64,000 bases of DNA from Candidatus Bathyarchaeota archaeon. Its GTDB lineage: Archaea > Thermoproteota > Bathyarchaeia > Bathyarchaeales > Bathycorpusculaceae. The stretch spans positions 224,001 through 288,000 of the forward strand of contig CAVYES010000005.1 of NCBI GenBank assembly GCA_963767735.1, written 5' to 3'. The notes below the pieces were generated by a model. That model was not told where the DNA came from and did no database searches. It was given only the letters and a program-made list of their open reading frames with translations. The position numbers were made by a program, and so were the translations under genes. Within the stretch, counting starts at the first letter, position 1; each line of letters begins with the position of its first letter. Below are positions 28,265 to 46,286 of the stretch, piece by piece.

Positions 28265-28280
28265 CCGAAACGCTTATATT
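28265..28280 (+). promoter_or_regulatory. BRE-TATA promoter of the aromatic operon leader
   Basis: CCGAAACG-CTTATATT about 40 nt upstream of the leader ATG. Confidence 0.65.
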
Positions 28281-28319
28281 TTCTGGATAACGTCCTATTG
28301 AGCAAGGTTCGAAGCTACC

Positions 28320-28403
28320 ATGTCCAATTGCAAAAGCAACAAAGAAAACAACACATCACAGTCACCTAGCTTCGACTACTATTTTTACGGTTATTTTTCT
28401 TAA
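28320..28403 (+). CDS. Putative Phe/Tyr-sensing leader peptide (27 aa)
   Basis: MSNCKSNKENNTSQSPSFDYYFYGYFS; 7 of the last 10 codons are Phe/Tyr; lies between the promoter and the Phe/Tyr operon. Confidence 0.8.
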   Translation: MSNCKSNKENNTSQSPSFDYYFYGYFS

Positions 28404-28441
28404 GCCCAGAACTGAAAAGTTTTTTGAGCAAAGTTCTGGGC
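28404..28441 (+). promoter_or_regulatory. Attenuator-like hairpin directly after the leader stop codon
   Basis: Perfect 10-bp stem GCCCAGAACT/AGTTCTGGGC with an 18-nt loop containing T6. Confidence 0.7.
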
Positions 28442-28459
28442 AAGGCATGGGTGTAAGAG

Positions 28460-29707
28460 ATGGCAAAAAATAATTCTTGCAGAAGAATTGTTGTTAAATT
28501 CGGTGGTTCTAGCTTAGCTGATCATGAGCGTCTCTTAAAAGCGGCGCTTGCGGTTGTAAACGAAGCAAAGGAAGGCACGCAGGTGGCTGTTGTAGTTTCT
28601 GCTATGGGTAAAACCACCGATGCCCTTATGGCGACAGCGAAAAACGCTTCCAATGGGAAACTGGAGAAAAAAGACTTAGACGATATTCTCTCGATGGGTG
28701 AGCGAACCAGCATAAGAATATTTGCTGCTGCGCTAAAGACCAACGGTGCAGAATCCTGCTATTTTGACCCGATAGACAATAACTGGCCAATAATAACTGA
28801 TTCTGCATTCCAAAACGCCAATCCAATCCTGAAAGATTGCGAAAAAAACATACGTGAATGCATACTGCCCATTTTGGAAAAAGGCGTCATACCTGTAGTG
28901 GCAGGGTTTCTTGGCAAAACTAAAGACGGCAAAATCACTACTCTCGGAAGAGGCGGCAGCGATACAACGGCGTTTATTTTAGCTGAAGCATTGAACGCTG
29001 ACGAAATCGTCTTAGTCACCGATGCAGACGGCATAATGTCAGGTGACCCAAAAATCGTCTCCAACCCAGAACGCCTAGAAGAAATCGATGTTAACACAAT
29101 AGTTGGACTTGCCGACTCAGGTGCTAAATTTATTCACAGTAAGGCCTTAAAGTACAAACCAAAAAATATCAACGTTAGAGTAATCAATCATGCACACGGC
29201 AACTTAACTAACGAGGGAACAGTAATCACGGGAGCGTTAGCAAGTGAACTTGACGCGGAAATAGCCCATCCTTTTCCAGTTGCTGAAATAACGGTGGTCG
29301 GAAACGGAATCTCCGCTAATCCGCAAATTATTCAAGAAATGGTGGAAAAAACAAAACAGCACTCCCTGCTTTTGGGCATGTCGATGAATACAAACTCAAT
29401 CTTACTTTACGCTTCTCAAGAAAAGAACTTAGACACTCTCTTCAACGATATTCACGATATCACAAAGCGCAACAAAGAAACCATCGCGATGGCGGTCAAA
29501 AAAGACCTGGTCTTCATAAAAACAAGCGGCGTCGGCTTAGAAGAAACCCACGGCATTATCGGTAAAATCAGCGAAGACCTCAGACTGAACGGCATAAACA
29601 TTTCTGGCATACTAACCATAACATCAAGCATCCTGCTTTTTGTAGATTGGGCTGAACGTGAAAAAGCTCTTAAGCTAATTAAAAACTCATTAAGGACTTC
29701 TAAATAA
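28460..29707 (+). CDS. lysC: Aspartate kinase with ACT domains
   Basis: VVKFGGSSL, VVSAMGKTTD and TTLGRGGSDTTA motifs. Confidence 0.92.
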   Translation: MAKNNSCRRIVVKFGGSSLADHERLLKAALAVVNEAKEGTQVAVVVSAMGKTTDALMATAKNASNGKLEKKDLDDILSMGERTSIRIFAAALKTNGAESCYFDPIDNNWPIITDSAFQNANPILKDCEKNIRECILPILEKGVIPVVAGFLGKTKDGKITTLGRGGSDTTAFILAEALNADEIVLVTDADGIMSGDPKIVSNPERLEEIDVNTIVGLADSGAKFIHSKALKYKPKNINVRVINHAHGNLTNEGTVITGALASELDAEIAHPFPVAEITVVGNGISANPQIIQEMVEKTKQHSLLLGMSMNTNSILLYASQEKNLDTLFNDIHDITKRNKETIAMAVKKDLVFIKTSGVGLEETHGIIGKISEDLRLNGINISGILTITSSILLFVDWAEREKALKLIKNSLRTSK

Positions 29708-29723
29708 CAAAAGGTGACAAAAC

Positions 29724-30515
29724 ATGAATCAAGGCAAAAAACGGCGATTAAAAAGAATCATGCGCGAAGACAACCGCACGGTAATCGTGCCCATGGATCA
29801 CGGCGTAACAATCGGACCAATCCAAGGAATAACCAACATGCAAGAAATAATCAATCAGCTCCTAAAAGGAGGCGTTGACGCTGTGCTGGTCCACAAAGGC
29901 ATAGCCAAGCTGGTAGATGTTGAAAACGCGGGTTTAATAGTGCAGTTGTCAGGCATGTCAAACCTTAGCCCGAACATAAACGGTAAAGTCCAAGTGTGCA
30001 GTGTTCAAGAAGCCATACGCTTAGGCGCAGACGCGGTCTCCGTGCACGTGAATGTTGGTTCACAAGATGAGGACAAAATGCTAAGCAACCTAGGCAAAGT
30101 ATCTGACGAATGCGACATATACGGTATCCCGCTGCTTGCCATGATGTACGCTCGAGGACCAAAAATACAAAATGAACATGCGCCAGAGGTGGTAGCTCAC
30201 GCTGCAAGAATCGGCGCTGAACTAGGTGCAGACATAATCAAAGCAAACTTCACAGGAGATATCGACACGTTCAAAACAGTCATCGAAAGCTGTCCAGTTC
30301 CAGTTGTAATTGCTGGAGGACCAAAATGCAAAACATCCCAAGAAATCCTTCAAACCACGCATGATTCAATAACGGCGGGGGCTGTAGGGCTCTCCATTGG
30401 ACGAAACGTGTTTCAACATGAGAACCCAACTTTAATTGTTAAGGCGCTCTCAGCAATCGTTCATGATGGGGTTAGCGTGGAGCAAGCGCTTAAAATTCTC
30501 GGTGAAAAAGCTTGA
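29724..30515 (+). CDS. aroA': 2-amino-3,7-dideoxy-D-threo-hept-6-ulosonate (ADH) synthase, DhnA family
   Basis: PMDHGVT, AARIGAELGADIIK and GRNVFQH motifs; adjacent to DHQ synthase II. Confidence 0.88.
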   Translation: MNQGKKRRLKRIMREDNRTVIVPMDHGVTIGPIQGITNMQEIINQLLKGGVDAVLVHKGIAKLVDVENAGLIVQLSGMSNLSPNINGKVQVCSVQEAIRLGADAVSVHVNVGSQDEDKMLSNLGKVSDECDIYGIPLLAMMYARGPKIQNEHAPEVVAHAARIGAELGADIIKANFTGDIDTFKTVIESCPVPVVIAGGPKCKTSQEILQTTHDSITAGAVGLSIGRNVFQHENPTLIVKALSAIVHDGVSVEQALKILGEKA

Positions 30516-31540
30516 AGGAACTTTGGATAGAAACATCGCTGGAAAAAAAACAAGCTTTAGAGCCGCTTGTCAGTCAGTTTAGCGATTGGGTGGTTGAAGA
30601 AGATAAAGCCACCTTTCTGGTAAACAAAAAAAACATAACCCTCGATATCTTTTCTCCCAAAAAAGCAGAGAAGCTCGAAAAAATTAATGTCTACAAGAAA
30701 ATTGTACGGATTTGTATCAGTGATAAGGAAACCGAAAACCAAATTGTTGAAGCATCTGAGCTTGGAGCAACCTACTTAATTATAAGTTGCGCAAACTGGC
30801 GTGTTATTCCGCTAGAAAACCTAATCGCGCGCATAAAGGGCAAAAGCAAATTAATCGCCGAAGTAACCAATGCCGAAGAGGCAAAGGTGGCACTTGAAAC
30901 CCTTGAATTAGGAACCGACGGCGTTTTGCTGAAAACTTCTAACCTTGAAGAAGTTCGCAAAACGGTTGCCATCGTTAAGCCAGAGGCTTTGAATCTTGAA
31001 ATGGCGGTCGGAAAAATAGTTTCCACAAAGCCTATCAGCACTGGTGCTCGGGTTTGTGTGGACACTTGTGAGTTGATGACACAGGGCGAAGGCATGCTCG
31101 TCGGCAGCCAAAGCGCAGGCTTATTCTTGGTGGAAGCAGAAGTCAACGAGAACCCTTATGTCGCGTCCCGACCATTTAGGGTTAATGCGGGGTCAGTATC
31201 CATGTACACATTAGGTACCCTGCAAACCACCCGTTATCTCCAAGAATTCAAAGCAGGAGATGAAGTTATAATTGTAAACCGCGAAGGCAAAACACGTAAA
31301 ACCAACGTGGGACGCATAAAAATCGAAATCAGACCGCTCATTCTCGTAGAGGCGCAGGTTGAAGGCAAAATCATAAAAACCATTCTGCAAAACGCCGAAA
31401 CCATCCGCCTAGTCACCCCAAAAGACTCAAAGCCAATAACCGAACTCAAACCCAACGACGATGTCATAGTGCACTTAGCTGCGAAGGGGGGCCGGCACTT
31501 CGGCGTATCCGTGCCTGAAGAAACGGTGATAGAGAAGTGA
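30512..31540 (+). CDS. aroB': 3-dehydroquinate synthase II
   Basis: WRVIPLENLIA, RVCVDTC, RPFRVNAG, LQNAETIRL and GRHFG motifs. Confidence 0.95.
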   Translation: MKELWIETSLEKKQALEPLVSQFSDWVVEEDKATFLVNKKNITLDIFSPKKAEKLEKINVYKKIVRICISDKETENQIVEASELGATYLIISCANWRVIPLENLIARIKGKSKLIAEVTNAEEAKVALETLELGTDGVLLKTSNLEEVRKTVAIVKPEALNLEMAVGKIVSTKPISTGARVCVDTCELMTQGEGMLVGSQSAGLFLVEAEVNENPYVASRPFRVNAGSVSMYTLGTLQTTRYLQEFKAGDEVIIVNREGKTRKTNVGRIKIEIRPLILVEAQVEGKIIKTILQNAETIRLVTPKDSKPITELKPNDDVIVHLAAKGGRHFGVSVPEETVIEK

Positions 31541-32220
31541 CAGCGAGAATCTGCGTTTCGATTCTCCCAAAAAACAATCTTGAAGCGTTAAGTCTCATCG
31601 AGACGGCAGAGAAAGCAAAGGCAAACCTCATAGAAGTTAGGCTAGACTGCCTTGAGTCACATAGAAACCTGTCAGATCTTGTTAAAGGCACCAAAATTCC
31701 CCTAATCGCCACGAACAAGCTAACAATTGAAAAAGGATTTTTTGCCGGAACTGAAACGGAGCGGCAGCAAACATTACTATCAGCTGCCAAGAACGGTTTC
31801 GAATATGTCGATGTTGACTTATTAAGCCTAAAACTTAATGAAACAATCGGCAAACTCAAGCCATTAGGCGCTAAACTAATCGTTTCTTTCCACAAATTCG
31901 ACGGCGTCTTAAGTGTTTCTGAAATGGAGCAGATTCTGAAGCAAGAAATGGCTTGTGGTGCTACCGTCTGTAAGATTGTGACAACAGCAGAGAAAATCGA
32001 AGACAACCTTGCAGTGCTAAATTTCGTTTCTGCCAATTCAGGAAAGTCCAAGATTGTCTGTTTCTGCATGGGTGAACAAGGCAAGGTTTCCAGGCTTCTT
32101 TCGCCGTTGTTTGGTGCCTTCTTCACTTTCGCTTCGCTTGAGCAAGGCAGCGAAACTGCTTCTGGGCAAATCTCTATTCAAGAACTGAGGGCAACTTTCA
32201 AGTTTTTGGAGAACAAGTAA
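31537..32220 (+). CDS. aroD: Type I 3-dehydroquinate dehydratase
   Basis: EVRLD, IVSFH, CKIV and CMGEQGKVSRL motifs. Confidence 0.92.
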   Translation: MTARICVSILPKNNLEALSLIETAEKAKANLIEVRLDCLESHRNLSDLVKGTKIPLIATNKLTIEKGFFAGTETERQQTLLSAAKNGFEYVDVDLLSLKLNETIGKLKPLGAKLIVSFHKFDGVLSVSEMEQILKQEMACGATVCKIVTTAEKIEDNLAVLNFVSANSGKSKIVCFCMGEQGKVSRLLSPLFGAFFTFASLEQGSETASGQISIQELRATFKFLENK

Positions 32221-32221
32221 G

Positions 32222-33079
32222 ATGGAAATTTCGGGAAAAACGCGCGTTTGCGGAGTAATCGGCGACCCAATAGAGTACACTCTTAGCCCAATTATGCATA
32301 ATGCAGCGTTTGAGGCTTTGGAAATAGACTACTTTTATTTAGCCTTTAAAGTAAAGTCCGCAGAAGTAGAAGACGCAATAAGAGGTATTCGGGCGCTGAG
32401 CATTCTTGGCTTAAACGTAACCATGCCCCACAAACACGCGGTCACCAAATATTTAGATGAGATAGACCCAACTGGCAAAGCCACAGGTTCCGTCAACACC
32501 ATCTTAAACAAGGATGGAAGATTGCTCGGCTTTAACACTGACGGCGTCGGAGCACTAAATGCGCTCGAACAGAACGGCGTGGAACTGAGAGGCAAAAAAG
32601 TGCTGGTGCTTGGAGCAGGCGGCGCTGCAAAAGCCATAGCATACACTCTCTCGCAAGCAGCGGACGAACTAGTGATTTTGAATCGTATACCTAAACCAGC
32701 AGCAGAGATAGCTGACCTCTTAAAACAAAAGTTCAACAAAAAAATCATCGCAGACCAACTCTCGCCAAGCACAATCAAAGAAAACCTTGCTGAATCTGAT
32801 GTGCTTATTAACGCCACTTCAGTCGGAATGAACCCAAACGCCAACCAAACCCCAGTGGCACTCGAGTGGCTCAAACCTGACTTGACAGTAATGGACATAG
32901 TTTACAATCCAATTGAAACAAAACTCGCAAAGGACGCTAAAGCCGTGGGAGCCAAGGTGGTAAGTGGGGTTGAAATGTTAATTTATCAGGGCGCTGCCTC
33001 GTTTGAAATTTGGACTGCCTGCAAGGCGCCAGTTGCGGTTATGAGGAAGGCAGCGCTTAATCACTTGCGGACGGTGTAG
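32222..33079 (+). CDS. aroE: Shikimate dehydrogenase
   Basis: LSPIMHN, NVTMPHK, NTDG, GAGGAA and MLIYQG motifs. Confidence 0.96.
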   Translation: MEISGKTRVCGVIGDPIEYTLSPIMHNAAFEALEIDYFYLAFKVKSAEVEDAIRGIRALSILGLNVTMPHKHAVTKYLDEIDPTGKATGSVNTILNKDGRLLGFNTDGVGALNALEQNGVELRGKKVLVLGAGGAAKAIAYTLSQAADELVILNRIPKPAAEIADLLKQKFNKKIIADQLSPSTIKENLAESDVLINATSVGMNPNANQTPVALEWLKPDLTVMDIVYNPIETKLAKDAKAVGAKVVSGVEMLIYQGAASFEIWTACKAPVAVMRKAALNHLRTV

Positions 33080-33083
33080 AAGA

Positions 33084-33953
33084 TTGACTGGAAAAGCTAC
33101 GGCTATCGCTCATGGCGCGGCAACAATCGTTAACGCAATGGCGCTCGGCAAAGGCGCAGCATTCGGAGTTGACCTGTGGACTAAGGCAGAAGTCAAATTA
33201 ACGGATGAGCCTCACGTTATCCAAGCAGAAATAACCTCTGACCCAAAAGAAAATACCGCCTTAATGGAGAAAACAGCAGCGCGGGTTCTCCAGAGGTTCA
33301 GTCTGGATAATAGTTTTGGAGCTAAAGTAAAAACTTGGTCAAACATTCCAATCGCTAAAGGATTAAAAAGCAGCAGCGCAGCAGCAAACGCAGTCGCCAT
33401 AGCAACGGTAGCTGCGTTGGATAAAACGCTTGACGACTTAGAAATCATAAAGTTAGGCGTAGACGCTGCCTTCGACGCAAAAGTGACTGTAACAGGCGCT
33501 TTCGATGACGCTTGCGCTTCATACTTCGGCGGCGCAGTTATCACAAACAATTTTAAACAAGAAATAGTTAAGCAGTTTCCGTTAATTGAAGATTCAGTAG
33601 TGCTTTTCCATATACCGCCTGAAAAGGCGTACTCAGCCGATTCAAACGTGCAGAGGCTACAAACGGTGAAAACGCTCGTTGAAGTCGCATATAAGGAAGC
33701 CTTAGAAGGCAAGGTTTGGGAAGCATTGACGCTTAACGGCTTGATTTACTCTTCAGCCTCAGGATACAACCCTTCAATCGCGATTGATGCGTTAGCTGCT
33801 GGAGCAATGGCAGCTGGGCTTTGCGGCAAGGGACCAGCAGTAACAGCAGTTACACCGAAGAATAAAATTGAAGAAGTAAAAACTGTCTTACAAAAGTACA
33901 GCGGCGAAATCTTACAGGCTAACATCAATCGTGAAAAAGCTAAGGTGCTATAG
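33084..33953 (+). CDS. aroK: Archaeal (GHMP-family) shikimate kinase
   Basis: IPIAKGLKSSSAAANA and TGAFDDACASYFGG motifs. Confidence 0.95.
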   Translation: MTGKATAIAHGAATIVNAMALGKGAAFGVDLWTKAEVKLTDEPHVIQAEITSDPKENTALMEKTAARVLQRFSLDNSFGAKVKTWSNIPIAKGLKSSSAAANAVAIATVAALDKTLDDLEIIKLGVDAAFDAKVTVTGAFDDACASYFGGAVITNNFKQEIVKQFPLIEDSVVLFHIPPEKAYSADSNVQRLQTVKTLVEVAYKEALEGKVWEALTLNGLIYSSASGYNPSIAIDALAAGAMAAGLCGKGPAVTAVTPKNKIEEVKTVLQKYSGEILQANINREKAKVL

Positions 33954-33956
33954 CAA

Positions 33957-35285
33957 ATGACGGACATAATAATTAAGAAAACTGAACGGTTAAACGGCGA
34001 GGTTTGTGCTCCTCCATCAAAATCTTACACACAGAGAATAGTCATAACGGCTGCTTTATCTGAAGGGGTTTCCAAAGTGTCAAATCCGCTTTTATCGGAA
34101 GACACCCAAGCAACCGTGCGCGCTATCACCGCTTTAGGTGCAAACATGGCAAGAAGTGAAGGCTGCTGGACCATCACGGGAGCAAACCCGCTTATAAATG
34201 CTAAAGCGCCTGTTGACTGCGGTGAATCCGGCGCCACGTTACGTTTCATGATGCCTGTGGCAGCTCTAGCACCTGACCCATCAACCCTGATTTTTAATGG
34301 TTCTCTTGATCGCAGACCCATCGAGCCTTTGCTTAAAAGCCTTGATGAACTCGGAGCCAAAGCTTGCACCAAAAAAATTCGCGTCCAAGAAAACGGAAAA
34401 GAAAAAACGAAAGATGCCGTTTTAGTTGAAGGCGGAGGCATCTTGGGCGGGGAGACCTCTATTGCTGGAGATGTTAGTTCTCAGTTCATTTCTGGATTAA
34501 TGTTCGCGTGCCCAATGGCAAAAGTGGATACAGAAGTCACTATAACAACTCCGCTTGAGTCCTCGGATTACGTTAAAATGACTTGGGATGTACTTGCAAA
34601 GCATGAAATTCAACTTGAAGTTCATGATAACTTTAAACGCATAAAGATTCCAGCTAATCAAACGTATAAGCCCCAAGACTTACGGGTGCCCGGAGATTTT
34701 TCTTCAGCTGCCTTTCTCCTCTCTGCCGCGGCAATAACCAGCTCTAAGGTTCAGATAAACAATCTTGAATACAAAACTGTTCAAGGTGACAAGGCAATTC
34801 TGGGAATCCTCAAGCAAATGGGAATTGAGGGAAAAGTATGCCAAAGCAGCGTTGAAATAAACGGAACCGGATGTCCGCTTGAACCTCTCAATGTTGATGC
34901 AAGAAATATTCCAGACCTAGTTCCCGCCTGTGCCGCCTTAGCATGTTACGCTAAGGGCACATCCAAAATCACTGGTGCCCAAAGGCTCAAACTTAAAGAG
35001 TCAGATAGGTTGAACTCGCTTTATCTTGAGCTGAGAAAGATGGGTGCAAAAATAAAGGTAGATGCAACCAGCTTAACCATAGATGGCCCCTGCGCCCTGC
35101 ATGGCGCCGTGATTAATCCACACAACGATCACCGAATCGCGATGGCTTGTGCGGTTGCAGCTTTAGGCGCAGAAGGGCAAACTACTATTCAAAATGCCGA
35201 GTGCGTTAGAAAGTCTTATCCGCAGTTCTTCACTCATTTAAAGCAAATAGGAGCTGAAATTGTTGGCGGGAAATTCGATTGGTAA
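33957..35285 (+). CDS. aroA: EPSP synthase
   Basis: PPSKSYTQR, GESGATLRF, SSQFISGL, KESDR and DHRIAM motifs. Confidence 0.96.
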   Translation: MTDIIIKKTERLNGEVCAPPSKSYTQRIVITAALSEGVSKVSNPLLSEDTQATVRAITALGANMARSEGCWTITGANPLINAKAPVDCGESGATLRFMMPVAALAPDPSTLIFNGSLDRRPIEPLLKSLDELGAKACTKKIRVQENGKEKTKDAVLVEGGGILGGETSIAGDVSSQFISGLMFACPMAKVDTEVTITTPLESSDYVKMTWDVLAKHEIQLEVHDNFKRIKIPANQTYKPQDLRVPGDFSSAAFLLSAAAITSSKVQINNLEYKTVQGDKAILGILKQMGIEGKVCQSSVEINGTGCPLEPLNVDARNIPDLVPACAALACYAKGTSKITGAQRLKLKESDRLNSLYLELRKMGAKIKVDATSLTIDGPCALHGAVINPHNDHRIAMACAVAALGAEGQTTIQNAECVRKSYPQFFTHLKQIGAEIVGGKFDW

Positions 35286-36369
35286 AGAGTTCATAGTAAC
35301 CACTTTCGGCGAAAGCCACGGCAAAATCGTTGGCGTAGTATTGGACGGTTGTCCCGCGGGATTGCCTCTTTCTGAAGCGGACATTCAAGTGGAATTGGAT
35401 AGGCGTATTCCTGCAGAGCCGAAAATTGTTTCGGGAAGAATCGAAAAAGACATCGTCAACATTCTTTCGGGCGTTTTTAACGGTTTTACAACTGGTGCTC
35501 CAATCGCTTTGATGGTTGAGAATAAAGAGGTTGACTCAAGCGATTATGAAGCAATCAAGGATCTGCCAAGACCAGGACACGCCGATTACCCCGCCCAAGT
35601 AAAGTATGGCGGCTTCAACGATTACCGAGGCGGCGGACGCTTCTCAGGCAGAGTCACAGTCGCACTCATCATGGCTGGGGCAATAGCCAAAAAATTGCTA
35701 AGCAAATTCGACGTTGACGTTTTAGCTTACACCCGAGCAGTTGGCAAAGTAAAAAGTGATAAAAAGTTTAGTGCCGAGGAGATCCGAAAGAATAGGTACG
35801 TAGCGGTTACTCGTTGTCCAGACTTCGCCTGTGCAGAGAGAATGGAGGAAGCTATAGTTACTGCGAAAAAAGACGGTGATAGTGTCGGCGGGGTAGTTGA
35901 ATGCATTGCCCTAAACGTTCCAGTGGGAGTTGGCGAGCCACTGTTTGATTCACTTGATGCCGATTTAGCAAAAGCATTGTTTGATATTCCCGCCGTAAAA
36001 GGCGTAGAGTTCGGCTTGGGGTTTAGAGTTGCAGAGTTAAAGGGTTCAGAAAGCAACGACCCCTACCTTATGCAAAGCGGAAAAGTTGCAACAGCAACAA
36101 ATAACGCAGGCGGAATCTTAGGCGGAATATCCAACGGTATGCCAATCATGATGCAGGTAGCGATAAAACCAACACCTTCTGTCGGCAAAGAACAGAAAAC
36201 CGTTAACCTCTCTACGATGGAAGACATGAGTCTTCGCATAAAGGGTAGGCATGACCCCTGTGTTGTCCCAAAAGCCGTTCCCGCCGTAGAATCTGCAGTT
36301 GCTATAACCTTAGCTGACCATATGATTCGCGCGGGCTTTATACCGAAAGTTTTGGAGAGAAAGAAATGA
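35260..36369 (+). CDS. aroC: Chorismate synthase
   Basis: TFGESHG, PRPGHAD, RGGGRFSGR and GRHDPC motifs. Confidence 0.97.
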   Translation: MLAGNSIGKEFIVTTFGESHGKIVGVVLDGCPAGLPLSEADIQVELDRRIPAEPKIVSGRIEKDIVNILSGVFNGFTTGAPIALMVENKEVDSSDYEAIKDLPRPGHADYPAQVKYGGFNDYRGGGRFSGRVTVALIMAGAIAKKLLSKFDVDVLAYTRAVGKVKSDKKFSAEEIRKNRYVAVTRCPDFACAERMEEAIVTAKKDGDSVGGVVECIALNVPVGVGEPLFDSLDADLAKALFDIPAVKGVEFGLGFRVAELKGSESNDPYLMQSGKVATATNNAGGILGGISNGMPIMMQVAIKPTPSVGKEQKTVNLSTMEDMSLRIKGRHDPCVVPKAVPAVESAVAITLADHMIRAGFIPKVLERKK

Positions 36370-36629: not shown

Positions 36630-36658
36630 AAAATACCTCTCGAAGGAGAGTTAAACCT

Positions 36659-38614: not shown

Positions 38615-39427
38615 TTAAGCCGCTTTCGGGTAAGAACCCAATATCCTAACGAATATCGCATATTTCTCTAATGCTTTCAACGCTTCTGCACATTGAGGTT
38701 CGGTTCGATGTCCCTCAAAATCAAGGTAAAAATTGTATTCCCACGCCGTCTTCTTTGTGGGTCTTGATTCAATTTTGGTCAAGTTAATGTTTCGCTTAGC
38801 AAATTCTCCGAGTGCATGGTAGAGTGAGCCTGGCTCGTGTTTTGCTGAGAAAATTATAGATGTTTTGTCTTTTCCTGTAGGAGGAGAATCTTCAGTTGAT
38901 AACACAAAGAAGCGGGTATAGTTCTCAGGGTTGTCCGCGATGTCTTCTGCGAGAATGCTCATGCCGTAGAGGTCGGCTGCTCTTTCGCTTGCAATCGCCG
39001 CAGCATTCTTTAAGCTTTTTTCTTTGAGCATCTTGACGCTGCCAGCCGTGTCATAGGTGGGTATGAGTTCGCGTCCAAACTCCTCCAAGAAACTTCGGCA
39101 CTGCGCCAGCGCCTGCGGATGGGAGTAAACAACCTTGATGTCTGCTAAGGCGGTGCCTGGGTTTGCGATGAGGCAATGCTCGATTTTCACGATGACTTCC
39201 CCGCACACTTTCAAATCGTACTTCAGGAAGAGGTCGTAGTTTTGGGTTACGCTGCCTTCTAAGCTGTTTTCAACGGGGACGACGCCGAACCTGGACTCCT
39301 GTGTGCAGACCCTGTCGAAAACGTCTTTGAAGTCCTTGCAGGGGTTAACTTCTGTTTTGGCTCCAAAGAATTGAAAGACTGCGCTTTCGCTGTAAGCGCC
39401 CCGTTCGCCTTGGAAGGCTACTTTCAC
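38615..39427 (-). CDS. pheA: Prephenate dehydratase with ACT domain
   Basis: QGERGAYSE, PVENSLEGSV, SHPQALAQC, NYTRF and LTKIESRP motifs. Confidence 0.96.
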   Translation of the reverse strand: MKVAFQGERGAYSESAVFQFFGAKTEVNPCKDFKDVFDRVCTQESRFGVVPVENSLEGSVTQNYDLFLKYDLKVCGEVIVKIEHCLIANPGTALADIKVVYSHPQALAQCRSFLEEFGRELIPTYDTAGSVKMLKEKSLKNAAAIASERAADLYGMSILAEDIADNPENYTRFFVLSTEDSPPTGKDKTSIIFSAKHEPGSLYHALGEFAKRNINLTKIESRPTKKTAWEYNFYLDFEGHRTEPQCAEALKALEKYAIFVRILGSYPKAA

Positions 39428-40941
39428 TTTTTGTTCCCTCGATTCTTAATCAAGAGTTTGTTTATACCATTTATCATTGCTTCAACACTAGCCATAACGA
39501 TATCTTCTCTTGCTGCGCGTGCGGAAACGATGTTGCCTTTTTCATCCTCAACTTTAATGACAACTTCTGCCACGGCGTTTGAGCCGCCCGTTATTGCTTC
39601 AAGCCGGTACTCTCTGAGCCGTATGTTTTCTAGATTATTGGTTATTTTTTGGATGGCTTTCAGTACGGCGTCAACTGGGCCTACGCCTGTTTCTGCTGCA
39701 ACGTATTCTTTTCCATCTAAAACGAGCCTTACTGAAGCGGTTGGAATAACTTTTATGCCCGTTATAACGGCTAAGTCACTTAAGTCAACGATTTTTTCTT
39801 CCCCTATCACTTCACCCATAACTGCTGAAGTTAACGCAAATAAATCAGCGTCAGTCACCATCTTACCCTTATCACCTAACTCTTTGACACGTTGAACAAT
39901 TTCCTGCAGCTGCTGTTCAGTTGGGTGGATGCCTATCTCTTCCAGTTCAGCTTTTACGCCGCGCGTACCAGCTAGTTTTCCTGCAACTAATTTTCTTGTG
40001 CGTCCCACTAACTCCGGATTTATCGGCTCGAAGGTTAATGGTTTCTCCGTTACTCCCCTCGTGTGAATGCCTGATTCATGGGCAAAAGCGTTTTCTCCTA
40101 CAATGGCCTTGTTAGCTTGCACATTTATACCGGTCAACGATGAAACCAATCTGGAAGTGCCGTATAATAACCGTGAGTTTACACCTGTCTTGTACTTGTA
40201 AATCAGATGTAAAGCCATAACTACTTCTTCAAGTGAAGCGTTCCCAGCGCGCTCACCTAACCCGTTGACAGCAACGTGCACCTGATCGGCGCCAGCTTCG
40301 ACTGCGGCTAAGGAGTTTGCAACGGCTAAACCGAAATCGTCATGGCAATGCGTGCTAATGGGAACGTTAACTACAGTTTTTAGTTCTTCAATGAGTTTGA
40401 TTGTTGTTTTCGGAATCATTATGCCTACGGTGTCAGGAACGTTTAGTATGTCCATTCCTGCTTTCTCTGCTGCTTGGCAAACTTGCTTTAAAAAGGGCAT
40501 TTCTGAGCGCGTGGCGTCCATTGGTGAAAACTCGCATTTGAAACCATGCTTCTTAACATACTCAACAGATTCCACGGTTGAAGACAACACCTGTTCAGGC
40601 GTTAAGTTCACGGCGTACCTCATCTGCACAAGCGAAGTTGGAATAAAAACGTGAATTAAGTCAACGTCGCAGTCAATTGCAGCGTCAATATCGCCTTTTG
40701 TTGCACGCGTCAAAGCGCAGATTTCTGGTTCTAACCCAGCTTTAGCAATCTCCTTGACAACTTTTTTTTCGCCCTCAGAAGAGCTTGGAAAACCGGCTTC
40801 GATAACGTCGACGCCTAGCTTGCTTAATTGACTTGCAATCTCAATCTTATCGTCTGCAGTTAAAGTAACGCCGGGTGTTTGCTCGCCATCTCTTAGTGTA
40901 GTGTCAAAAATACGGATACGTTTTGAAGTTTTATCGTTCAT
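39424..40941 (-). CDS. leuA: 2-isopropylmalate / citramalate synthase
   Basis: DTTLRDGEQ, HCHDDFG, GERAGN and AHESGIH motifs; C-terminal regulatory GVGPVDA. LeuA versus CimA not resolvable here. Confidence 0.85.
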   Translation of the reverse strand: MNDKTSKRIRIFDTTLRDGEQTPGVTLTADDKIEIASQLSKLGVDVIEAGFPSSSEGEKKVVKEIAKAGLEPEICALTRATKGDIDAAIDCDVDLIHVFIPTSLVQMRYAVNLTPEQVLSSTVESVEYVKKHGFKCEFSPMDATRSEMPFLKQVCQAAEKAGMDILNVPDTVGIMIPKTTIKLIEELKTVVNVPISTHCHDDFGLAVANSLAAVEAGADQVHVAVNGLGERAGNASLEEVVMALHLIYKYKTGVNSRLLYGTSRLVSSLTGINVQANKAIVGENAFAHESGIHTRGVTEKPLTFEPINPELVGRTRKLVAGKLAGTRGVKAELEEIGIHPTEQQLQEIVQRVKELGDKGKMVTDADLFALTSAVMGEVIGEEKIVDLSDLAVITGIKVIPTASVRLVLDGKEYVAAETGVGPVDAVLKAIQKITNNLENIRLREYRLEAITGGSNAVAEVVIKVEDEKGNIVSARAAREDIVMASVEAMINGINKLLIKNRGNKK

Positions 40942-40945
40942 TTTT

Positions 40946-41983
40946 TCAACCAGTTTTCACTGTTAAGGCTGCAGCAATGGCTTCTGCCATCCCCACGGTC
41001 GTGGCGTTGCCGCCGCAGTCTGGAACAGTTTGACCGTTACGTAACGCGTATACTACCCCATTCTCTATTGCAGCGCCTGCTTTGATGCATTTTTTGTCGC
41101 TGTATTTTTCGCCGAGCCACTCCAGCATCATCTTCGCGGAAAGTATCATGGAGATTGGGTTTGCGGTGTGTTTTCCTGCTCTGTTTGGTGCTGAACCGTG
41201 GATAGGTTCGAAGAGTGCAAAGTTGTCGCCTATGTTTGCGCCTGGCGCCATACCCAACCCGCCGATAAGTTGGGCTGCTTCGTCTGAGAGGATGTCGCCG
41301 AACATGTTGCAGGTGCAGAAGACATCGAATTCTTGGGGCTCTTTTATCAAACGCATAGATGCTGCGTCAACGTATAACTCGTTGAAGGCGATGTCTGGGT
41401 ACTGTTTTGCCGTTTCGCGGCATATGCTGGCGAATAAACCGTCGGTTACGCGCATAACGTTGGCTTTGTGTATGGCGGTTACTTTCTTTTTGCCATTTCG
41501 CAGACGTGCGATTTCGAAGGCTTTCTTGGCTATGCGCTCACAATTTGCTCTTGTGATGATTCTCATGCATATGGTTGTGTCGTTGCCTACGGTGAATTCT
41601 AAGCCCTTGTAAACATCCTCAGTGTTCTCTCTAACAAACATCATATCTATGTCAGGTCGAGCCACAGGAACGTTAGGATAAGCTTTCAACGGACGCAAAT
41701 TGGCGTACAAATCGAACATCAGTCTGAGTTTAACTATGACGTCGGCTGCGGTTTCGCCTACGGGTCCCTTTAGGCAAGCGTGGGATTCTTTGATTTTTTG
41801 CACTGTGTCTTCGGGTAATGCGGCGCCTCTTTTAGCTAAGGTTGCGTCGCCCGCTTCAGCCTCAATAATTTTGAGGTTTAATCCGAATTTTTTCTGTGCT
41901 GAGTCTAGAACTTTTAGGGTAGCTTCGGTTAATTCTGGTCCGATGCCGTCGCCTGGGATTAGGGATATTTTGTATTCTGTCAT
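40946..41983 (-). CDS. leuB: 3-isopropylmalate dehydrogenase family
   Basis: PGDGIGPE, RENTE, NMFGDILSD and EPIHGSAP motifs. Confidence 0.9.
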   Translation of the reverse strand: MTEYKISLIPGDGIGPELTEATLKVLDSAQKKFGLNLKIIEAEAGDATLAKRGAALPEDTVQKIKESHACLKGPVGETAADVIVKLRLMFDLYANLRPLKAYPNVPVARPDIDMMFVRENTEDVYKGLEFTVGNDTTICMRIITRANCERIAKKAFEIARLRNGKKKVTAIHKANVMRVTDGLFASICRETAKQYPDIAFNELYVDAASMRLIKEPQEFDVFCTCNMFGDILSDEAAQLIGGLGMAPGANIGDNFALFEPIHGSAPNRAGKHTANPISMILSAKMMLEWLGEKYSDKKCIKAGAAIENGVVYALRNGQTVPDCGGNATTVGMAEAIAAALTVKTG

Positions 41984-42484
41984 TTTTTGTTTAGTCTCCT
42001 TCTCAGGTTTTCGATTAATCCGCCATCTGCTAATATTTCAATTATGAATGGTGGTAGCTTGTCTACTTGAAAGCTTTTTGCCTTTTGAAATGTTTTCTAT
42101 CTTGCCAGCTTCAACATCCACGGCTATTTCGTCACCTGTTTCAACAGCAGCCGATATGCCTTCGCATTCGATTACTGGTAAACCGATGTTAATCGCGTTT
42201 CGGAAGAAAATCCGAGCGAAAGATTCTGCTAACACGCATTTTACGCCTGCGTACTTTAGGGCTAGTGGCGCTTGTTCTCGGCTTGAGCCGCATCCGAAGT
42301 TTTTGCCGCCTACTACGATTACGCCTTTTTTTGCTTTTTCAGGAAAAGCTGGGTCTAAGCTTTCCAGGGCATGTTTTGCTAACTCGTAAGGGTCAACTAA
42401 TACCAGGTATTTTCCAGGCAGAATAACGTCTGTGTCAATGTTGTTTCCGAATTTTATCGCTGGACCTTTAATTTTCATATTCAT
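41980..42484 (-). CDS. leuD: 3-isopropylmalate dehydratase small subunit, frameshifted near 42075-42079
   Basis: NIDTD, NFGCGSSREQA and SFARIF motifs; conserved tail LPPFIIEILADGGLI lies in another frame after an A5 run. Confidence 0.9.
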
Positions 42485-43749
42485 GCTTTTGCCTCCAGTT
42501 TTCTGGGGTCAGTGATTTTGCCTGTGACTGCTGAAGCAGCTACCGTTGCTGGAGAAGCTAAGTATACGCTGGCTTGGGTGCTGCCCATTCTTCCAATAAA
42601 GTTCCTGTTTGAAGTGCTTACGCAAACTTCGTCTGCTGCTAATAATCCTATGTGACCGCCTAAGCATGGACCGCATGCCGAACCGCAAACTATTGCGCCT
42701 GCATCAGTGAAGATTTCCAATAAGCCTTCGTTTAACGCTTGCTTGTAAACTTCTTGGGAAGCTGGAATCACAAGTGCCCTAACATTGTCTTTTACGCGTT
42801 TGCCCTTTAGGATTTGAGCGGCTAAGCGTAAATCTTCGATTCTGCCGTTGGTGCATGAACCAATAAACGCCTGCTCGATTGGAACGTTGCCTGCTTCTGA
42901 AATTGGCTTAACATTGTCAACCGATGATGGGCATGCTATTTGCGGCTCCATCTTTGAGACGTCAAATTCCACTGTCCGCTCGTAAACTGCGTCTTTGTCG
43001 CTTTTCAACGATTCAAAGTTGGGTAATGCTTTGACTCTGCCTTCTAGGAACTTGCGGGTTGTTTCGTCAGGTTCGATGATGCCGTTTTTGGCGCCCATTT
43101 CCACAGCCATATTGCACAGCGTCATTCTTCCCGCTATGCTCATGCTTTTTATTGTTGGACCCGTGAATTCAGTGCTTTTGTATGTTGCGCCGTCAACGCC
43201 CATTCGTCCGATTATTGATAAGATTAGGTCTTTTGGTGTAACGTACTTTTGAAATTGCCCAGTCACGTTTATTTTAATCGCTTCCGGCACTTTTAGCCAA
43301 ATTTTTCCAGTAGCAAAGACTGCTGCTGCTTCGGTTGAGCCTATTCCTGTTGCGAAAGCGCCGAAGGCTCCGTACGTGCAAGTATGTGAATCAGCGCCTA
43401 CGATTACTGTTCCAGGAACTACATGCCCTTTCTCCGGCATAACTTGGTGGCAGATTCCGCCTCTGCCTATGTCATATATGCGTATTTTTTGGTCTTTGGC
43501 GAATTGACGCATGGTCTTGTGCAGTTCTGCCGCTTTAACGGACTCAGCCGGCACCTGATGGTCCAGAATCACCACTGCTTTTTGGTTATCCCAAACTTTT
43601 TGTACGCCTATTTTTTTGAAGGCTTCAACGGCTAAAGGTCCAGTTAAATCATGCACCATTATCATGTCTACGTTTGCATCCACGATTTCTCCTGGGTGCA
43701 CAACTTTTTTTCCTGAAGCTTTAGCCAAGATTTTTTCTGTAATGTTCAT
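42481..43749 (-). CDS. leuC: 3-isopropylmalate dehydratase large subunit
   Basis: GICHQV, DSHTCTYGA, IGSCTNGR, CGPCLG and STSNRNF motifs. Confidence 0.95.
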   Translation of the reverse strand: MNITEKILAKASGKKVVHPGEIVDANVDMIMVHDLTGPLAVEAFKKIGVQKVWDNQKAVVILDHQVPAESVKAAELHKTMRQFAKDQKIRIYDIGRGGICHQVMPEKGHVVPGTVIVGADSHTCTYGAFGAFATGIGSTEAAAVFATGKIWLKVPEAIKINVTGQFQKYVTPKDLILSIIGRMGVDGATYKSTEFTGPTIKSMSIAGRMTLCNMAVEMGAKNGIIEPDETTRKFLEGRVKALPNFESLKSDKDAVYERTVEFDVSKMEPQIACPSSVDNVKPISEAGNVPIEQAFIGSCTNGRIEDLRLAAQILKGKRVKDNVRALVIPASQEVYKQALNEGLLEIFTDAGAIVCGSACGPCLGGHIGLLAADEVCVSTSNRNFIGRMGSTQASVYLASPATVAASAVTGKITDPRKLEAKA

Positions 43750-43857
43750 GTTTTTTTCTCTTCTTTTACAATTAACTGTTATTTTTGATTAATCTGCCGA
43801 GGCGGTTTCTCATTTTTGAGAAACGGAAAGTTAAGGGTTTCCGTTCGGAAAGACGAT

Positions 43858-44370
43858 TTATTCGTCTATTCTTACCGATTTTGCTCCTCTTGCCAATGCT
43901 GTTATGCCTGTTCTTGCAAGTTCAATGACGCCCGTTGCTTTCATCAAGTTTAGGAACGCATCAAGCTTATCAGGTGTTCCTGTGATTTCCACGGTTAAAC
44001 TGTCAGTGGAAACGTCAATGATTCGTCCTCGGAAGACTTCTACGCAGTTGATAATGTCAGAGCGATCTTTCGCTGTTGGAGAGTTAACTTTTATCAAAGC
44101 CAGCTCACGCATTACATAATTTCCCGGCTCCAGTTCCTCGACTTTAAGCACATCGATAAGTTTTGCGACTTGCTTGACGACTTGGATGATTGTTTTTTCA
44201 TCCTCGTTGACTGTTATTGTCATGCGCGCGATGTCTTTCCTTTCGCTCGGGCCGACAGTGATGCTTTCAATGTTAAAGTTTCTACGTCGGAACAGGTTTG
44301 AAACGCCGAAGAGCACACCTGGCTTGTTTTCGACAAGTACCGAAATTATTTTGGTTCTTCCAGCTTCCAT
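43858..44370 (-). CDS. ilvN: Acetolactate synthase small (regulatory) subunit
   Basis: VENKPGVL...RRRNFNIESITVG and ELARTG motifs. Confidence 0.95.
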   Translation of the reverse strand: MEAGRTKIISVLVENKPGVLFGVSNLFRRRNFNIESITVGPSERKDIARMTITVNEDEKTIIQVVKQVAKLIDVLKVEELEPGNYVMRELALIKVNSPTAKDRSDIINCVEVFRGRIIDVSTDSLTVEITGTPDKLDAFLNLMKATGVIELARTGITALARGAKSVRIDE

Positions 44371-46076
44371 TAGTAGTCACCTCTCTGCTGTGGTAAACCG
44401 CAACCTGGCGGCACAAAGGGGACAACATCATGCTCCGAGCCTATAGGCACATCGATCACCGTTGTAACCTTACTGTTCAGTGCTGTCTTAACTGCTTTTT
44501 GGAATTCCTCCATTGATGTCGCTCGCAATCCCTGCGCCCCGTAAGCTTCTGCCAGCTTGACGAAATCTGGTGTTTTACCCAAGTGAACTGCCATGTAACG
44601 TCGTTTGTAGAGCATTCTTTGCCACTGAGCAACCATGCCCAGCACCGAATTGTTCAGCACTATAACGGTGACGGGAATCTTTTCCGTAACGGAGCATGCA
44701 AGTTCCTGCTCGCTCATTATGAAACTGCCGTCGCCTGCTATGTCAACGACTGGTCTATCTGGGCATGCGACTTTTGCTCCGATTGCAGCTGGAAAGCCAA
44801 AACCCATGGTTCCTAAGCCTCCTGAACTGATGAAGGATCGAGGCTTCAGAGCTTGGAAATAAAGCGCTGACCACATCTGGTTTTGCCCAACTTCCGTAGT
44901 TACTATCGCGTTTTCAGGCAGCAGCTTCCTTAACTCCATCAGCAACGCTTTCGGAACTATGTCTCTGGGTCTATCCTTCAGCAGGGGACTCAGCTGTTCT
45001 TTTGCTTCTTTAACCCGCTTTGCCCAAGCATTGCCTTCACTCTTATGCAGTTTATCGCTTAAGGCGGCAAGCAAAAGCTTCAAGGCTGCTTTGGCGTCGC
45101 CGACTATGGGCACATCAACCTCAATGTTCTTGCCGATTTCTGCTTCATCAATGTCTATGTGGATTTTTTTAGCTTCCCTCGCAAAAGTGTCCAAATTTGC
45201 TGTTGCGCGGTCAGAGAATCTTGTTCCCACGGCCAGTAGCACATCGGCTTCGCCTAGCAATTTGTTCGCCGCCGGGTTTCCATGCATTCCTATGCTTCCT
45301 ACCGACAGGGGATGCCCTTCGGGGAACGAGCCTTTGCCCATGAATGTTGTGGCGACTGGCGCCATCAACAGGTCAGACATCTGCATGATTTCGTCTGAAG
45401 CACTCGAGATTATGACTCCTCCGCCTGAAAGAATCAGCGGGCTCTCCGCTTTCGCAAGCAAACTGGCGGCTTCACTTATCTTAGTTAAGTCTATCTCGAT
45501 CATAGATTTGTAGCCTCTAGCTTCGATCTTATCAGTTACCTCCACTTCGCCAATATCTGACTGTACATTTTTGGGTAAGTCAATCAGAACTGGCCCTGGC
45601 CTGCCAGTGGACGCTATGTAGAACGCTGTATTGACGATTGTTGGAATTTCAGCAACTGTCCTGGGCTGAAAATTGTATTTGGTGATTGGGGTTGTAATGC
45701 CAATTATGTCGGCTTCTTGGAAAGCGTCCTTGCCGATAAAGTATGACGTGTTAATACCTGAGGACGGAACCTGCCCCGTCAATGCTATTATAGGTGAAGA
45801 ATCCATGTACGCGTTCGCTATGCCTGTTACCAAGTTTGTAGCTCCAGGTCCTGAGGTTGCCATACAGACTCCTACCCGACCGCTGGCTCTGGCATAGCCT
45901 TCGGCTTCATGCGCTGCGCATTGCTCATGCCTAGCGAGGATGTGCCTGATTTTCTTATTGCCGCATAATGCATCGTACACAGGCAATATTGCTCCACCTA
46001 AGATGCCGAATATAACATCCACGTTTTGTTGTTCAAGGGATTCTAAGAGTGCTTTTGCACCAGACATTTTGGTCAT
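44370..46076 (-). CDS. ilvB: Acetolactate synthase large subunit
   Basis: RHEQCAAH, TSGPGATN, SSGGLGTMGFG and GDGSF motifs; ATG 46076 with GGAG RBS preferred over TTG 46097. Confidence 0.96.
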   Translation of the reverse strand: MTKMSGAKALLESLEQQNVDVIFGILGGAILPVYDALCGNKKIRHILARHEQCAAHEAEGYARASGRVGVCMATSGPGATNLVTGIANAYMDSSPIIALTGQVPSSGINTSYFIGKDAFQEADIIGITTPITKYNFQPRTVAEIPTIVNTAFYIASTGRPGPVLIDLPKNVQSDIGEVEVTDKIEARGYKSMIEIDLTKISEAASLLAKAESPLILSGGGVIISSASDEIMQMSDLLMAPVATTFMGKGSFPEGHPLSVGSIGMHGNPAANKLLGEADVLLAVGTRFSDRATANLDTFAREAKKIHIDIDEAEIGKNIEVDVPIVGDAKAALKLLLAALSDKLHKSEGNAWAKRVKEAKEQLSPLLKDRPRDIVPKALLMELRKLLPENAIVTTEVGQNQMWSALYFQALKPRSFISSGGLGTMGFGFPAAIGAKVACPDRPVVDIAGDGSFIMSEQELACSVTEKIPVTVIVLNNSVLGMVAQWQRMLYKRRYMAVHLGKTPDFVKLAEAYGAQGLRATSMEEFQKAVKTALNSKVTTVIDVPIGSEHDVVPFVPPGCGLPQQRGDY

Positions 46077-46171
46077 TTCATTGCTTCTCCAATACAATTA
46101 ATAGACTCTCGTCTAAAAAGAAATTGTTTGAAAACTTTTCGATGGCTGTTTCAAAGGGTTCCCTATAAAAA

Positions 46172-46222
46172 TCAAAGAACAAGTACCCGAAGATTCCAGC
46201 TATTGAGGTGACGATCCCTCAT
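46172..46222 (-). CDS. Putative Leu/Val-sensing leader peptide (16 aa)
   Basis: MRDRHLNSWNLRVLVL; 5 of the last 6 codons are Leu/Val; GAGG RBS; U5 run right after the stop; upstream of ilvB. Confidence 0.75.
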   Translation of the reverse strand: MRDRHLNSWNLRVLVL

Positions 46223-46270
46223 CTTAATTCCTCTTGAAACTCTACGTTCCTTAAATTATCTCATTGAACA

Positions 46271-46286
46271 AATAAAAAGTTTACGG
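46271..46286 (-). promoter_or_regulatory. BRE-TATA promoter of the ilv-leu operon leader
   Basis: Minus strand reads CCGTAAAC-TTTTTATT about 50 nt upstream of the leader ATG. Confidence 0.55.

Follow-up and report, generated by a model that had tools for sequence, protein, structure and literature searches.

Are operons for amino acid biosynthesis in archaea controlled by ribosomes that translate a short leader ahead of the first gene? The question is raised by a 64,000-nt stretch of a Candidatus Bathyarchaeota genome (contig CAVYES010000005.1, positions 224,001 to 288,000; referred to here as the window), in which an operon for aromatic amino acids and a convergent ilv/leu operon are each preceded by a small open reading frame (ORF). 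A preliminary description of this sequence had assigned both operons to one layout, in which the last codons of the leader ORF specify the end products of the pathway. We found that the layout holds for the aromatic operon, whose leader (the aro leader) we regard as a strong candidate for a leader-peptide attenuator in archaea, the first of its kind, whereas the leader of the ilv/leu operon has no conserved Ile, Leu or Val codons and represents another type of leader.

The aro leader ORF, uORF1, was defined from an ORF listing and from its conservation. It occupies 28320..28403 on the + strand, comprises 27 codons plus TAA and encodes MSNCKSNKENNTSQSPSFDYYFYGYFS. Its position and its tail FDYYFYGYFS without Trp had been described correctly: the peptide ends in …SFDYYFYGYFS, and the Tyr/Phe codon block, delimited by residue counts as the last 12 sense codons (28365..28400, +), specifies seven Phe or Tyr residues and no Trp. 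This genome contains 3316 intergenic ORFs that start with ATG, span 10-60 codons and lie within 350 nt of a gene on the same strand. Of all these, only uORF1 has at least seven Phe, Tyr or Trp residues among the last 12, and it is also the only one with four Tyr residues there.

Orthologous leaders, by which the preliminary description had proposed to judge its idea, bear out the aro side for the ORF (23/23) as well as for aromatic tails (47/47); at ilvB the ORF is kept, but not the codons. For the first of these counts, we sampled the region upstream of ADH synthase at 29 loci of relatives. At 23 of these loci (22 from the same genus, one from another family) the gene ahead of ADH synthase is aspartate kinase, and every one of the 23 has a matching leader ORF upstream of aspartate kinase, which starts with ATG, has at least 23 codons (most have 24-29), carries a tail such as SFDYYFYYYHFP and ends 44-63 nt short of the position that aligns with the aspartate kinase start in the window. 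At the six loci, from five genomes of other families, in which no aspartate kinase precedes ADH synthase, we found neither an aromatic leader ORF nor the hairpin described below.

A wider set was obtained through a hairpin pattern scan of the species collection, which returned at least 120 stretches. The leader scan of the window, the 29 loci of relatives and the first 80 pattern loci (110 sequences) gave 52 leaders, 47 of them distinct, and the other 40 pattern loci contributed 15 further leaders, 14 of them new. Among the 80 of the 120 pattern loci with listed titles, those that gave no leader carry bacterial names. As the 47 leaders were chosen for having an ORF, the count free of circularity is 23/23. 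In the 47 distinct leaders the ORF has 24-29 codons with an invariant ATG, and the stop codon is TAA in 37, TAG in eight and TGA in two. The last 12 residues include six to nine Phe, Tyr or Trp in all 47 (mean 7.57), and the Tyr/Phe block always extends to within two codons of the stop. Tyr accounts for 208 of the 564 tail residues (37%), Phe for 144 (26%) and Trp for four (0.7%); that Tyr outnumbers Phe and Trp is nearly missing agrees with the presence of the Tyr-branch enzyme prephenate dehydrogenase, and of no trp genes, in the operon. In the variable N-terminal part (2004 nt in total) we counted zero in-frame stops, compared with 17 and 39 in the other two frames; the N-terminus diverges in sequence and keeps its frame.

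RNAalifold, run on 24 leaders, predicts two helices, P1 and P2, and the single-sequence fold also predicts P1. The 5' arm of P1, UCGAAGCUA (28309..28317, +), lies 2 nt before the leader AUG and pairs with UAGCUUCGA (28367..28375, +), which overlaps the Ser-Phe-Asp codons. Hairpin P2 (28404..28441, +) is formed by GCCCAGAACU (28404-28413) and AGUUCUGGGC (28432-28441) around a loop of 18 nt (28414-28431, +), with T6 at 28420-28425. In the window P2 has 10 bp and a stability of -16.7 kcal/mol (z -3.76; 2/200 shuffles fold as well), and it occurs once in the genome; P1 duplexes computed per sequence range from -11 to -20.7 kcal/mol in 47/48 sequences. Across these 48 sequences, 93.0% of the P1 cells and 95.8% of the P2 cells are paired, together 94.6% of 853 cells, as against at most 47% after the partners have been offset by 1-3 columns. 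Where just one side of a pair has changed, the outcome is G.U on the + strand throughout P2 and almost throughout P1, in which the pair at the base of the helix shows other types too. Double changes affect six pairs of P1 and P2 taken together, two of them in P2, a number that none of 500 shuffles reaches.

The junction of stop codon and hairpin is tight: the gap measures 0 nt in 36/47 leaders and ranges from -1 to 5. The loop, by contrast, varies from 12 to 22 nt across the 47 leaders, and this variable spacer together with the G.U pattern argues for an RNA element and against a DNA operator. From the end of P2 to the aspartate kinase start codon there are 9-25 nt. In most leaders a conserved GGGTG(T) follows P2 after 7-9 nt, and in some lineages the Shine-Dalgarno-like site is only 2-3 nt away; in the window it is GGGUG (28449..28453, +), which we take, in view of archaeal 16S 3' ends, to be the candidate Shine-Dalgarno site of aspartate kinase. 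The whole element is compact, with ~140 nt from the AUG to the aspartate kinase start (28320-28460) and ~200 nt if the promoter box is included. This box, CCGAAACGCTTATATTTT (28265..28282, +), resembles a B recognition element (BRE) plus TATA box as judged from the archaeal consensus. It is almost invariant in 22/24 aligned leaders; L053 differs, and L045 lacks the stretch where its contig ends. Transcription would start at a putative site around 28300-28305. The BRE/TATA boxes reported for both operons are confirmed in so far as A/T-rich boxes upstream of the aro and ilvB leaders are conserved in the alignments.

The T-run that accompanies the hairpin lies inside the P2 loop, and none follows P2 in genus g1. 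The run has at least five T in 34/47 leaders, where it begins ~15-18 nt after the stop, four in 8/47 and at most three in 5/47. U-tracts with hairpins had been reported for both leaders; such a hairpin follows uORF1 (10 bp, T6 in the loop), and the uORF2 region folds no better than shuffled sequence (z -0.01). The statement that a canonical hairpin-plus-U terminator is missing proved right, as a sigma-70/terminator scan of 28000-28600 found no hairpin plus T-run, with a mean of 0.9 in shuffles; it returned just two promoter-like matches, a number near that in shuffles (mean 0.8). Searching the 64-kb window against Rfam 15 gave no match at the gathering score and, at E values up to 10, only chance-level matches in either leader. 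On the genome scale, runs of at least six T are found in 14.2% of the 60-nt windows behind stops, in 5.7% of those before starts and in 2.0% of those inside genes; T-runs behave as gene-end signals in this genome. A direct repeat shared by the 5' untranslated region (UTR; TTGAGCAAGGTTC) and the P2 loop-arm (TTGAGCAAAGTTC) was discarded, since its identity is 0.312 within the same genome and 0.304 between genomes, and 494/2000 permutations are as high, which indicates composition rather than co-evolution.

Taken together, we consider it probable that ribosomes on the aro leader mediate some form of cis-regulation that responds to Tyr/Phe and, with slightly less assurance, that the leader is a real translated ORF which senses charged tRNA-Tyr and tRNA-Phe in cis and thereby sets the expression of the operon. 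The element would read, in order, as promoter box, 5' UTR of ~15-20 nt, AUG, variable N-terminus, Ser-Phe-Asp/Glu, Tyr/Phe block and stop, followed from the next base on by P2, the Shine-Dalgarno site and aspartate kinase. Ribosomes protect ~12-15 nt on the 3' side of the P site. With a Tyr or Phe codon in the A site, the ribosome would hence reach at most the first 2-3 nt of P2, whereas with the stop codon in the A site it would cover most of the P2 5' arm. A ribosome held on any Tyr/Phe codon would keep off P2, which could fold once transcribed; a ribosome that decodes the whole block would reach the stop, sit on the 5' arm and leave P2 open.

P2 would then be the structure that forms on starvation (ON) and would correspond to helix 2:3 in the trp leader. 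In the OFF state P2 would be open, and the U-rich stretch from the leader to aspartate kinase would be exposed to termination or cleavage of the poly(U)/FttA type. A 3:4 terminator hairpin would not be needed because archaeal termination does not require one. As set out in section 6 of a review (PMC8116511), archaeal polymerases terminate at poly(U), an activity enhanced by aCPSF1/FttA, and mutual exclusivity of the ribosome and aCPSF1 has been suggested. P1, in which the 5' UTR beside the AUG pairs with the Ser-Phe-Asp codons, would re-close the start site of the leader behind the first ribosome. The ribosome positions that cover P2 and the assignment of ON and OFF are what we infer from known footprints and from the trp leader as a model. 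If folded P2 is equated with ON, the sign of regulation is right for an operon of biosynthesis and every conserved element has a use; as a specific output this is nevertheless doubtful. The broader formulation, in which the aro leader is the first archaeal ribosome-mediated amino-acid attenuator and links translation of its 24-29 codons to the fate of the nascent aro transcript by a stop-adjacent hairpin that serves as antiterminator against poly(U)/FttA termination, we advance tentatively, with the balance tipping a little to the negative side.

Transcription through the region is suggested by a contig from an RNA library of a peat metatranscriptome. It measures 157 nt, has three differences and spans 28314-28470, that is the leader, P2 and the aspartate kinase start. 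Three peat metatranscriptome runs contain small shares of the stretch in the form of contigs, from which transcript starts, ends and levels cannot be read and in which uncovered parts mean nothing.

Several observations speak against the tRNA-sensing proposal or its P2 output. As the T-run lies in the loop, polymerase passes it before the 3' arm of P2 exists, so that P2 cannot affect intrinsic termination there, only later events. The T-run is reduced to three or fewer in 5/47 leaders, and in genus g16 it is located outside the loop. By simple coupling logic, RNA would be laid open to FttA when the ribosome lags behind, and regulation would have the opposite sign. For neither arm of P2 did we find a mutually exclusive alternative pairing better than controls, and the switch would consequently depend on ribosome occupancy alone. 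Synonymous codons in S-F-D-Y-x-F-Y are nearly fixed (TAC 40/47, TTT 41/47, TAT 44/47), which points to extra constraints at the RNA or peptide level beyond the model and could accommodate an arrest-peptide or RNA-recognition component. That the leader is translated is deduced from a sequence signature, and the Shine-Dalgarno-like AGGU, 10-13 nt from the AUG, is far. The RNA support consists of one short contig that has no transcript ends and may reflect DNA carry-over. Finally, the relatives are kin, and the counts overstate the independent support.

Which other explanations might account for the same element? The one that survives best is shielding, as put forward in the preliminary description: a ribosome stalled on the last Tyr/Phe codons would protect U-rich RNA behind RNA polymerase from aCPSF1/FttA, in the manner of Rho exclusion at tnaC, and once the ribosome terminates and leaves, FttA would end transcription. 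This agrees with control codons within two codons of the stop in 47/47 leaders, with the T-run of at least five from ~15-18 nt after the stop in 34/47, with the enrichment of T-runs after genes and with the exclusivity of ribosome and aCPSF1 suggested in the cited section of PMC8116511. However, shielding assigns no role to P1 or to P2, although P2 is conserved more strongly than any other element; a ribosome stalled in the early part of the 12-codon block would leave at least 20 nt of free RNA; the loop T-run is absent from 5/47 leaders and from genus g16; and the involvement of FttA is conjectural. We regard this explanation as unlikely, if the least so among the alternatives.

Marginally less likely is control of translation or mRNA stability, in which P2 would act by the ribosome-binding site of aspartate kinase or as a protective 5' hairpin, and ribosomes on the leader would alter the access to this site or the half-life of the mRNA, in the manner of ermC/cat. 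The location of P2 9-25 nt before the aspartate kinase start, and in some lineages 2-3 nt before the Shine-Dalgarno-like site, would suit such a role. The minimum-free-energy fold of the window also contains a lower stem that pairs the Tyr/Phe codons with the Shine-Dalgarno/AUG region of aspartate kinase. Yet this candidate had to be dropped: in 45 leaders its stability is weaker than that of controls, with a mean z of +0.57 against codon-permuted sequences (9/45 below 0) and of +0.48 against shuffled ribosome-binding sites (10/45 below 0). The stem is evidently not selected, and the pairing of the ribosome-binding site that characterises ermC/cat translational attenuation is weaker here than in permuted controls. 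Nor does the freed 3' arm have a partner downstream, as its best duplexes involve the conserved GGSSLAD codons within the aspartate kinase gene and reach a mean z of -0.11 in 47 sequences. Moreover, the simplest version, in which terminating ribosomes open P2, predicts more expression when amino acids are plentiful.

A TnaC-like arrest peptide is a quite improbable third explanation. Here, SF(D/E)Y.FYY…(F/Y)P would stall the ribosome at the stop or near it in response to free Tyr or Phe and not to scarce tRNA. The tail is conserved in order as well as in composition (SFDYYFY in 14, SFDYGFY in 11 and SFEYCFY in six of the 47 leaders), the N-terminus of the peptide is variable, and by our own count 25/47 leaders end in Pro followed by the stop; the TnaC and pheL peptides, too, end in Pro. 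On the other hand, the same nucleotides are constrained by P1, whose pairing (AGC TTC GA) partly explains the fixed order, with the Ser-Phe codons AGC and TTC in its 3' arm fixed in 46/47 leaders. The conserved motif SF(D/E)Y.FY is made up of cognate codons, and enrichment for exactly the end products of the operon is what codon sensing predicts.

To a similarly low degree we credit an 'ORF' that is not translated at all and consists of protein-binding sites in DNA or RNA, for example an operator in which an inverted repeat, GCCCAGAAC…GTTCTGGGC, flanks an internal promoter rich in A/T. Conservation at the nucleotide level includes synonymous sites, and the A/T-rich loop ~35 nt upstream of the aspartate kinase start would be a possible promoter geometry. 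Against this stand the spacer between the repeat arms, which varies from 12 to 22 nt, the arm changes, which keep G.U pairing on the + strand only, the retention of frame, start and stop while the N-terminal sequence diverges, and the RNA-library contig, which covers the leader and the aspartate kinase start.

How widely is the element distributed? The exact P2 hairpin is present in 49/401 genomes sampled from the class. Within the family it is found in 38/103 genomes (30/40 in genus g1, 7/12 in g21 and 1/1 in g28); exact matches outside the family are scattered, have unrelated loops and look like chance. In another family, all six genomes of genus g16 (L053, L270-L274) have a diverged aro leader of the form MNS…FYSF(S/G)Y(F/Y)FY(N/R). 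Its stop codon lies directly against a GCCCAG…CUGGGC hairpin or overlaps the first base of it (6/6, read by eye), and a U-rich stretch follows the hairpin. P1 is replaced in this genus by a CUGGG(C/U) copy located 3-4 nt upstream of the leader AUG. Its sequence complements the post-stop hairpin's 5' arm, for which it possibly could compete, a 1:2 / 2:3 arrangement that is absent from the genus of the window. The adjacency of stop and hairpin is the deepest conserved feature, as it is kept in two families that differ in other details. As its occurrence comprises three genera of one Bathyarchaeia family and, in diverged form, another family, the leader is an innovation of this lineage and not a trait of archaea at large.

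Does the second operon have a leader of the same kind? Its leader ORF, uORF2 (46172..46222, -; 16 codons plus TGA, MRDRHLNSWNLRVLVL), was recognised by genus conservation and is preceded by a Shine-Dalgarno-like AGAGG (46230..46234, -), conserved in the alignment, and by a TATA-like box with the conserved stretch ACCGTAAACTTTTTATTTG in the genus alignment (46270..46278, -). The ORF is conserved in the window and in all 22 relatives of the genus, with an invariant ATG and a fixed stop column (TGA, TAA or TAG). In the window the peptide does end in LRVLVL (46222-46172), as had been described; as a cognate tail, however, this ending failed, being variable and free of Ile, Leu and Val in 4/23 sequences. 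The peptide consists of MRDRHLNSWDRRV plus three variable residues, for which the 23 genus sequences show LVL, LIL, QLF, QLL, QIS, QIL, HFY, LFC, PRN, FIL and LFL. At least one Ile, Leu or Val is present in 19/23, and the four exceptions are HFY (three) and PRN (one). The window itself differs from the 22 relatives at several otherwise invariant positions, and Leu at position 11 is a substitution seen only there. The block ATGAGGGATCGTCACCTCAATAGCTGGGATCGTCGGGTAC is preserved as nucleotide sequence and contains the direct repeat GGGATCGTC twice, at a distance of 21 nt. In other families, 6/7 loci have ORFs of the form MRD(S/N/T/R)R… that start with GTG or ATG and lack runs of Ile, Leu or Val; their peptides are MRDSRVRRNRFIHS-like and rich in Arg. 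RNAalifold proposes 15 pairs for the ilvB leader, with AGAGG pairing to CCUCU ~75 nt downstream; as there is no compensatory change and the fold is at the shuffle level, we do not claim an RNA structure.

A related leader precedes hisG. It encodes MMRDCVHTRRLRSLKAIQTV with one His codon, lies outside the window (contig C5:184328-184412, -) and has matches in 24/24 genus genomes (87-96% nucleotide identity, E 5.8e-13 or better). Like the ilvB leader it opens with ATGAGGGAT(C/T)G, and it contains two direct repeats of a different unit, GATTGCGTTCAT, 19 nt apart. Of 15 ATGAGGGAT sites in the genome three are intergenic, two of these being the ilvB and hisG leaders. Neither of these two 'MRD-type' leaders has a cognate-codon run or an Rfam match. 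As relatives do not keep the LRVLVL tail, the ilvB leader does not qualify as a cognate-codon attenuator; it is a nucleotide-conserved 'MRD-type' leader, shared with the his operon and separate from the aro system. An Ile/Leu/Val-codon attenuator, for which the LRVLVL ending, the Ile, Leu or Val in 19/23 tails and the conserved start, AGAGG and stop position might be cited, is very improbable in view of the HFY and PRN tails, the nucleotide-level conservation of MRDRHLNSWDRRV with its repeats, the MRDSRVRRNRFIHS-like peptides of other families, the similar opening, two repeats and single His codon at hisG, and the shuffle-level fold (z -0.01).

Cognate-codon leaders are not a general system in this genome. 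The regions upstream of trpE, ilvD and ilvC contain no leader ORF of this kind, and in a genome-wide scan the top single-residue matches precede PstS-like, NuoF-like and other non-biosynthetic genes (identified by eye). The lysW operon had been presented as having its own Lrp-type regulator and no such leader, and indeed we found a divergent Lrp/AsnC gene and no ATG leader ORF of at least 20 amino acids. This regulator gene (56442-56853, +) is split into HTH_AsnC (56442-56705) and a ligand-binding domain (56635-56853) in overlapping frames, an apparent frameshift. The TrpE frame, outside the window (contig C4, ~180950-181000), lacks a start codon (ATG, GTG or TTG) close to its N-terminus. At ATGGGGAATC there is an ATG that is offset from the frame by one base, which may be due to an assembly indel in a G-run or to a real frameshift; TGTACA stands just after the stop of the upstream gene, and there is no Trp leader ORF. 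A T-box-like complementarity to tRNA was set aside as a candidate, since Aragorn, at default settings, listed 33 tRNAs, none of them for Tyr, Phe or Trp.

The operon behind the aro leader (28460..38613, +; 11 genes, annotated with Pfam and NCBIfam) runs from aspartate kinase to prephenate dehydrogenase in the order aspartate kinase, ADH synthase, DHQ synthase II, aroD, aroE, archaeal shikimate kinase, EPSP synthase, chorismate synthase, chorismate mutase, aminotransferase and prephenate dehydrogenase. Aspartate kinase matches NCBIfam NF005159 (389 bits, cut-off 379) and ADH synthase TIGR01949 (348 bits, cut-off 299). These genes represent the archaeal route to aromatic amino acids that depends on aspartate semialdehyde, which explains why aspartate kinase comes first. 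Convergent with it is the ilvB-ilvN-leuC-leuD-leuB-leuA-prephenate dehydratase operon (38615..46076, -; Pfam), for which the ATG at 46076 was picked as the ilvB start by alignment with relatives. The gene content agrees with the preliminary description, to which prephenate dehydratase has to be added. This gene (38613-39427), the last of the ilvBN-leuCDBA operon, faces the prephenate dehydrogenase that ends the aro operon, the two stop codons being 1 nt apart; owing to its location the Phe branch is transcribed with the branched-chain genes. A DDE transposase gene (46488-47669, -) lies directly upstream of the ilvB promoter.

That leader-peptide attenuation is not established in archaea, as the preliminary description had held, is in line with the literature: we found no precedent in open-access papers and bioRxiv, section 15 of Blombach et al. 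2021 (PMC8448881) knows of no attenuation in archaea, and neither "attenuation" nor "leader peptide" appears in a 2021 review of archaeal transcription-translation coupling (PMC8116511). If our proposal is true, the logic of the trp attenuator has been rebuilt without a terminator hairpin for a eukaryote-like polymerase. With the 'MRD' leaders of ilv/leu and his, it would further mean that Bathyarchaeia regulate amino acid biosynthesis largely after initiation, via leader ORFs or RNAs. The leader is short and portable, which makes the gene-specific use of archaeal coupling and the interplay of ribosomes with FttA/poly(U) termination testable, and the combination of a cognate-codon tail with a stop abutting a hairpin provides a sequence handle for more leaders.

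Several bacterial systems invite comparison. At tnaC-tnaA, a ribosome at the end of the leader gates the access of a factor beside the stop (PMC8429421), much as proposed for the aro leader; but tnaC senses free Trp and induces a catabolic operon, whereas the aro operon is biosynthetic and its leader peptide is rich in cognate codons. As with tnaC, the C-terminal part of the aro leader peptide is conserved and frequently ends in Pro-stop. In mycobacteria, polycysteine short ORFs attenuate downstream operon genes (bioRxiv 10.1101/834739); they resemble the aro leader in being rich in codons for one amino acid and differ in being bacterial, leaderless and Cys-specific. Closer in pathway is the aroR leader of Corynebacterium glutamicum, with Phe-Tyr-Phe before the aroF operon, where stalling raises transcription (PMC11802643, section 7). 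It likewise places a leader peptide with Phe and Tyr ahead of the common aromatic pathway; according to the same section it responds to Phe and not to Tyr, and it is bacterial and has three aromatic residues, as against six to nine in 12.

The best-known relatives in logic are pheL-pheA and trpL-trpEDCBA of E. coli, in which attenuation depends on Phe- and Trp-charged tRNA (PMC11802643, section 7). Both share with the aro leader a short ORF before a biosynthetic operon, end-product codons near its 3' end and a stop just before an RNA arm that is covered by the terminating ribosome. Unlike them, the aro leader shows no hairpin-plus-U terminator and none of the 1:2, 2:3 and 3:4 pairings, its T-run is in the hairpin loop, its codons are a mixture of Tyr and Phe, and its host is an archaeon, whose polymerase ends at poly(U) with FttA and not by Rho or intrinsic hairpins. 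The pheL peptide ends in …TFP. Measured against attenuators of the trp/phe/his type, the ilvB leader has a conserved ORF without conserved cognate codons; the aro leader lacks exclusive terminator/antiterminator helices and a G+C-rich hairpin plus U-run, and it has both the conserved leader ORF and the conserved cluster of cognate codons. By this analogy the aro leader would work like a trp/phe-type attenuator while standing outside the canonical family.

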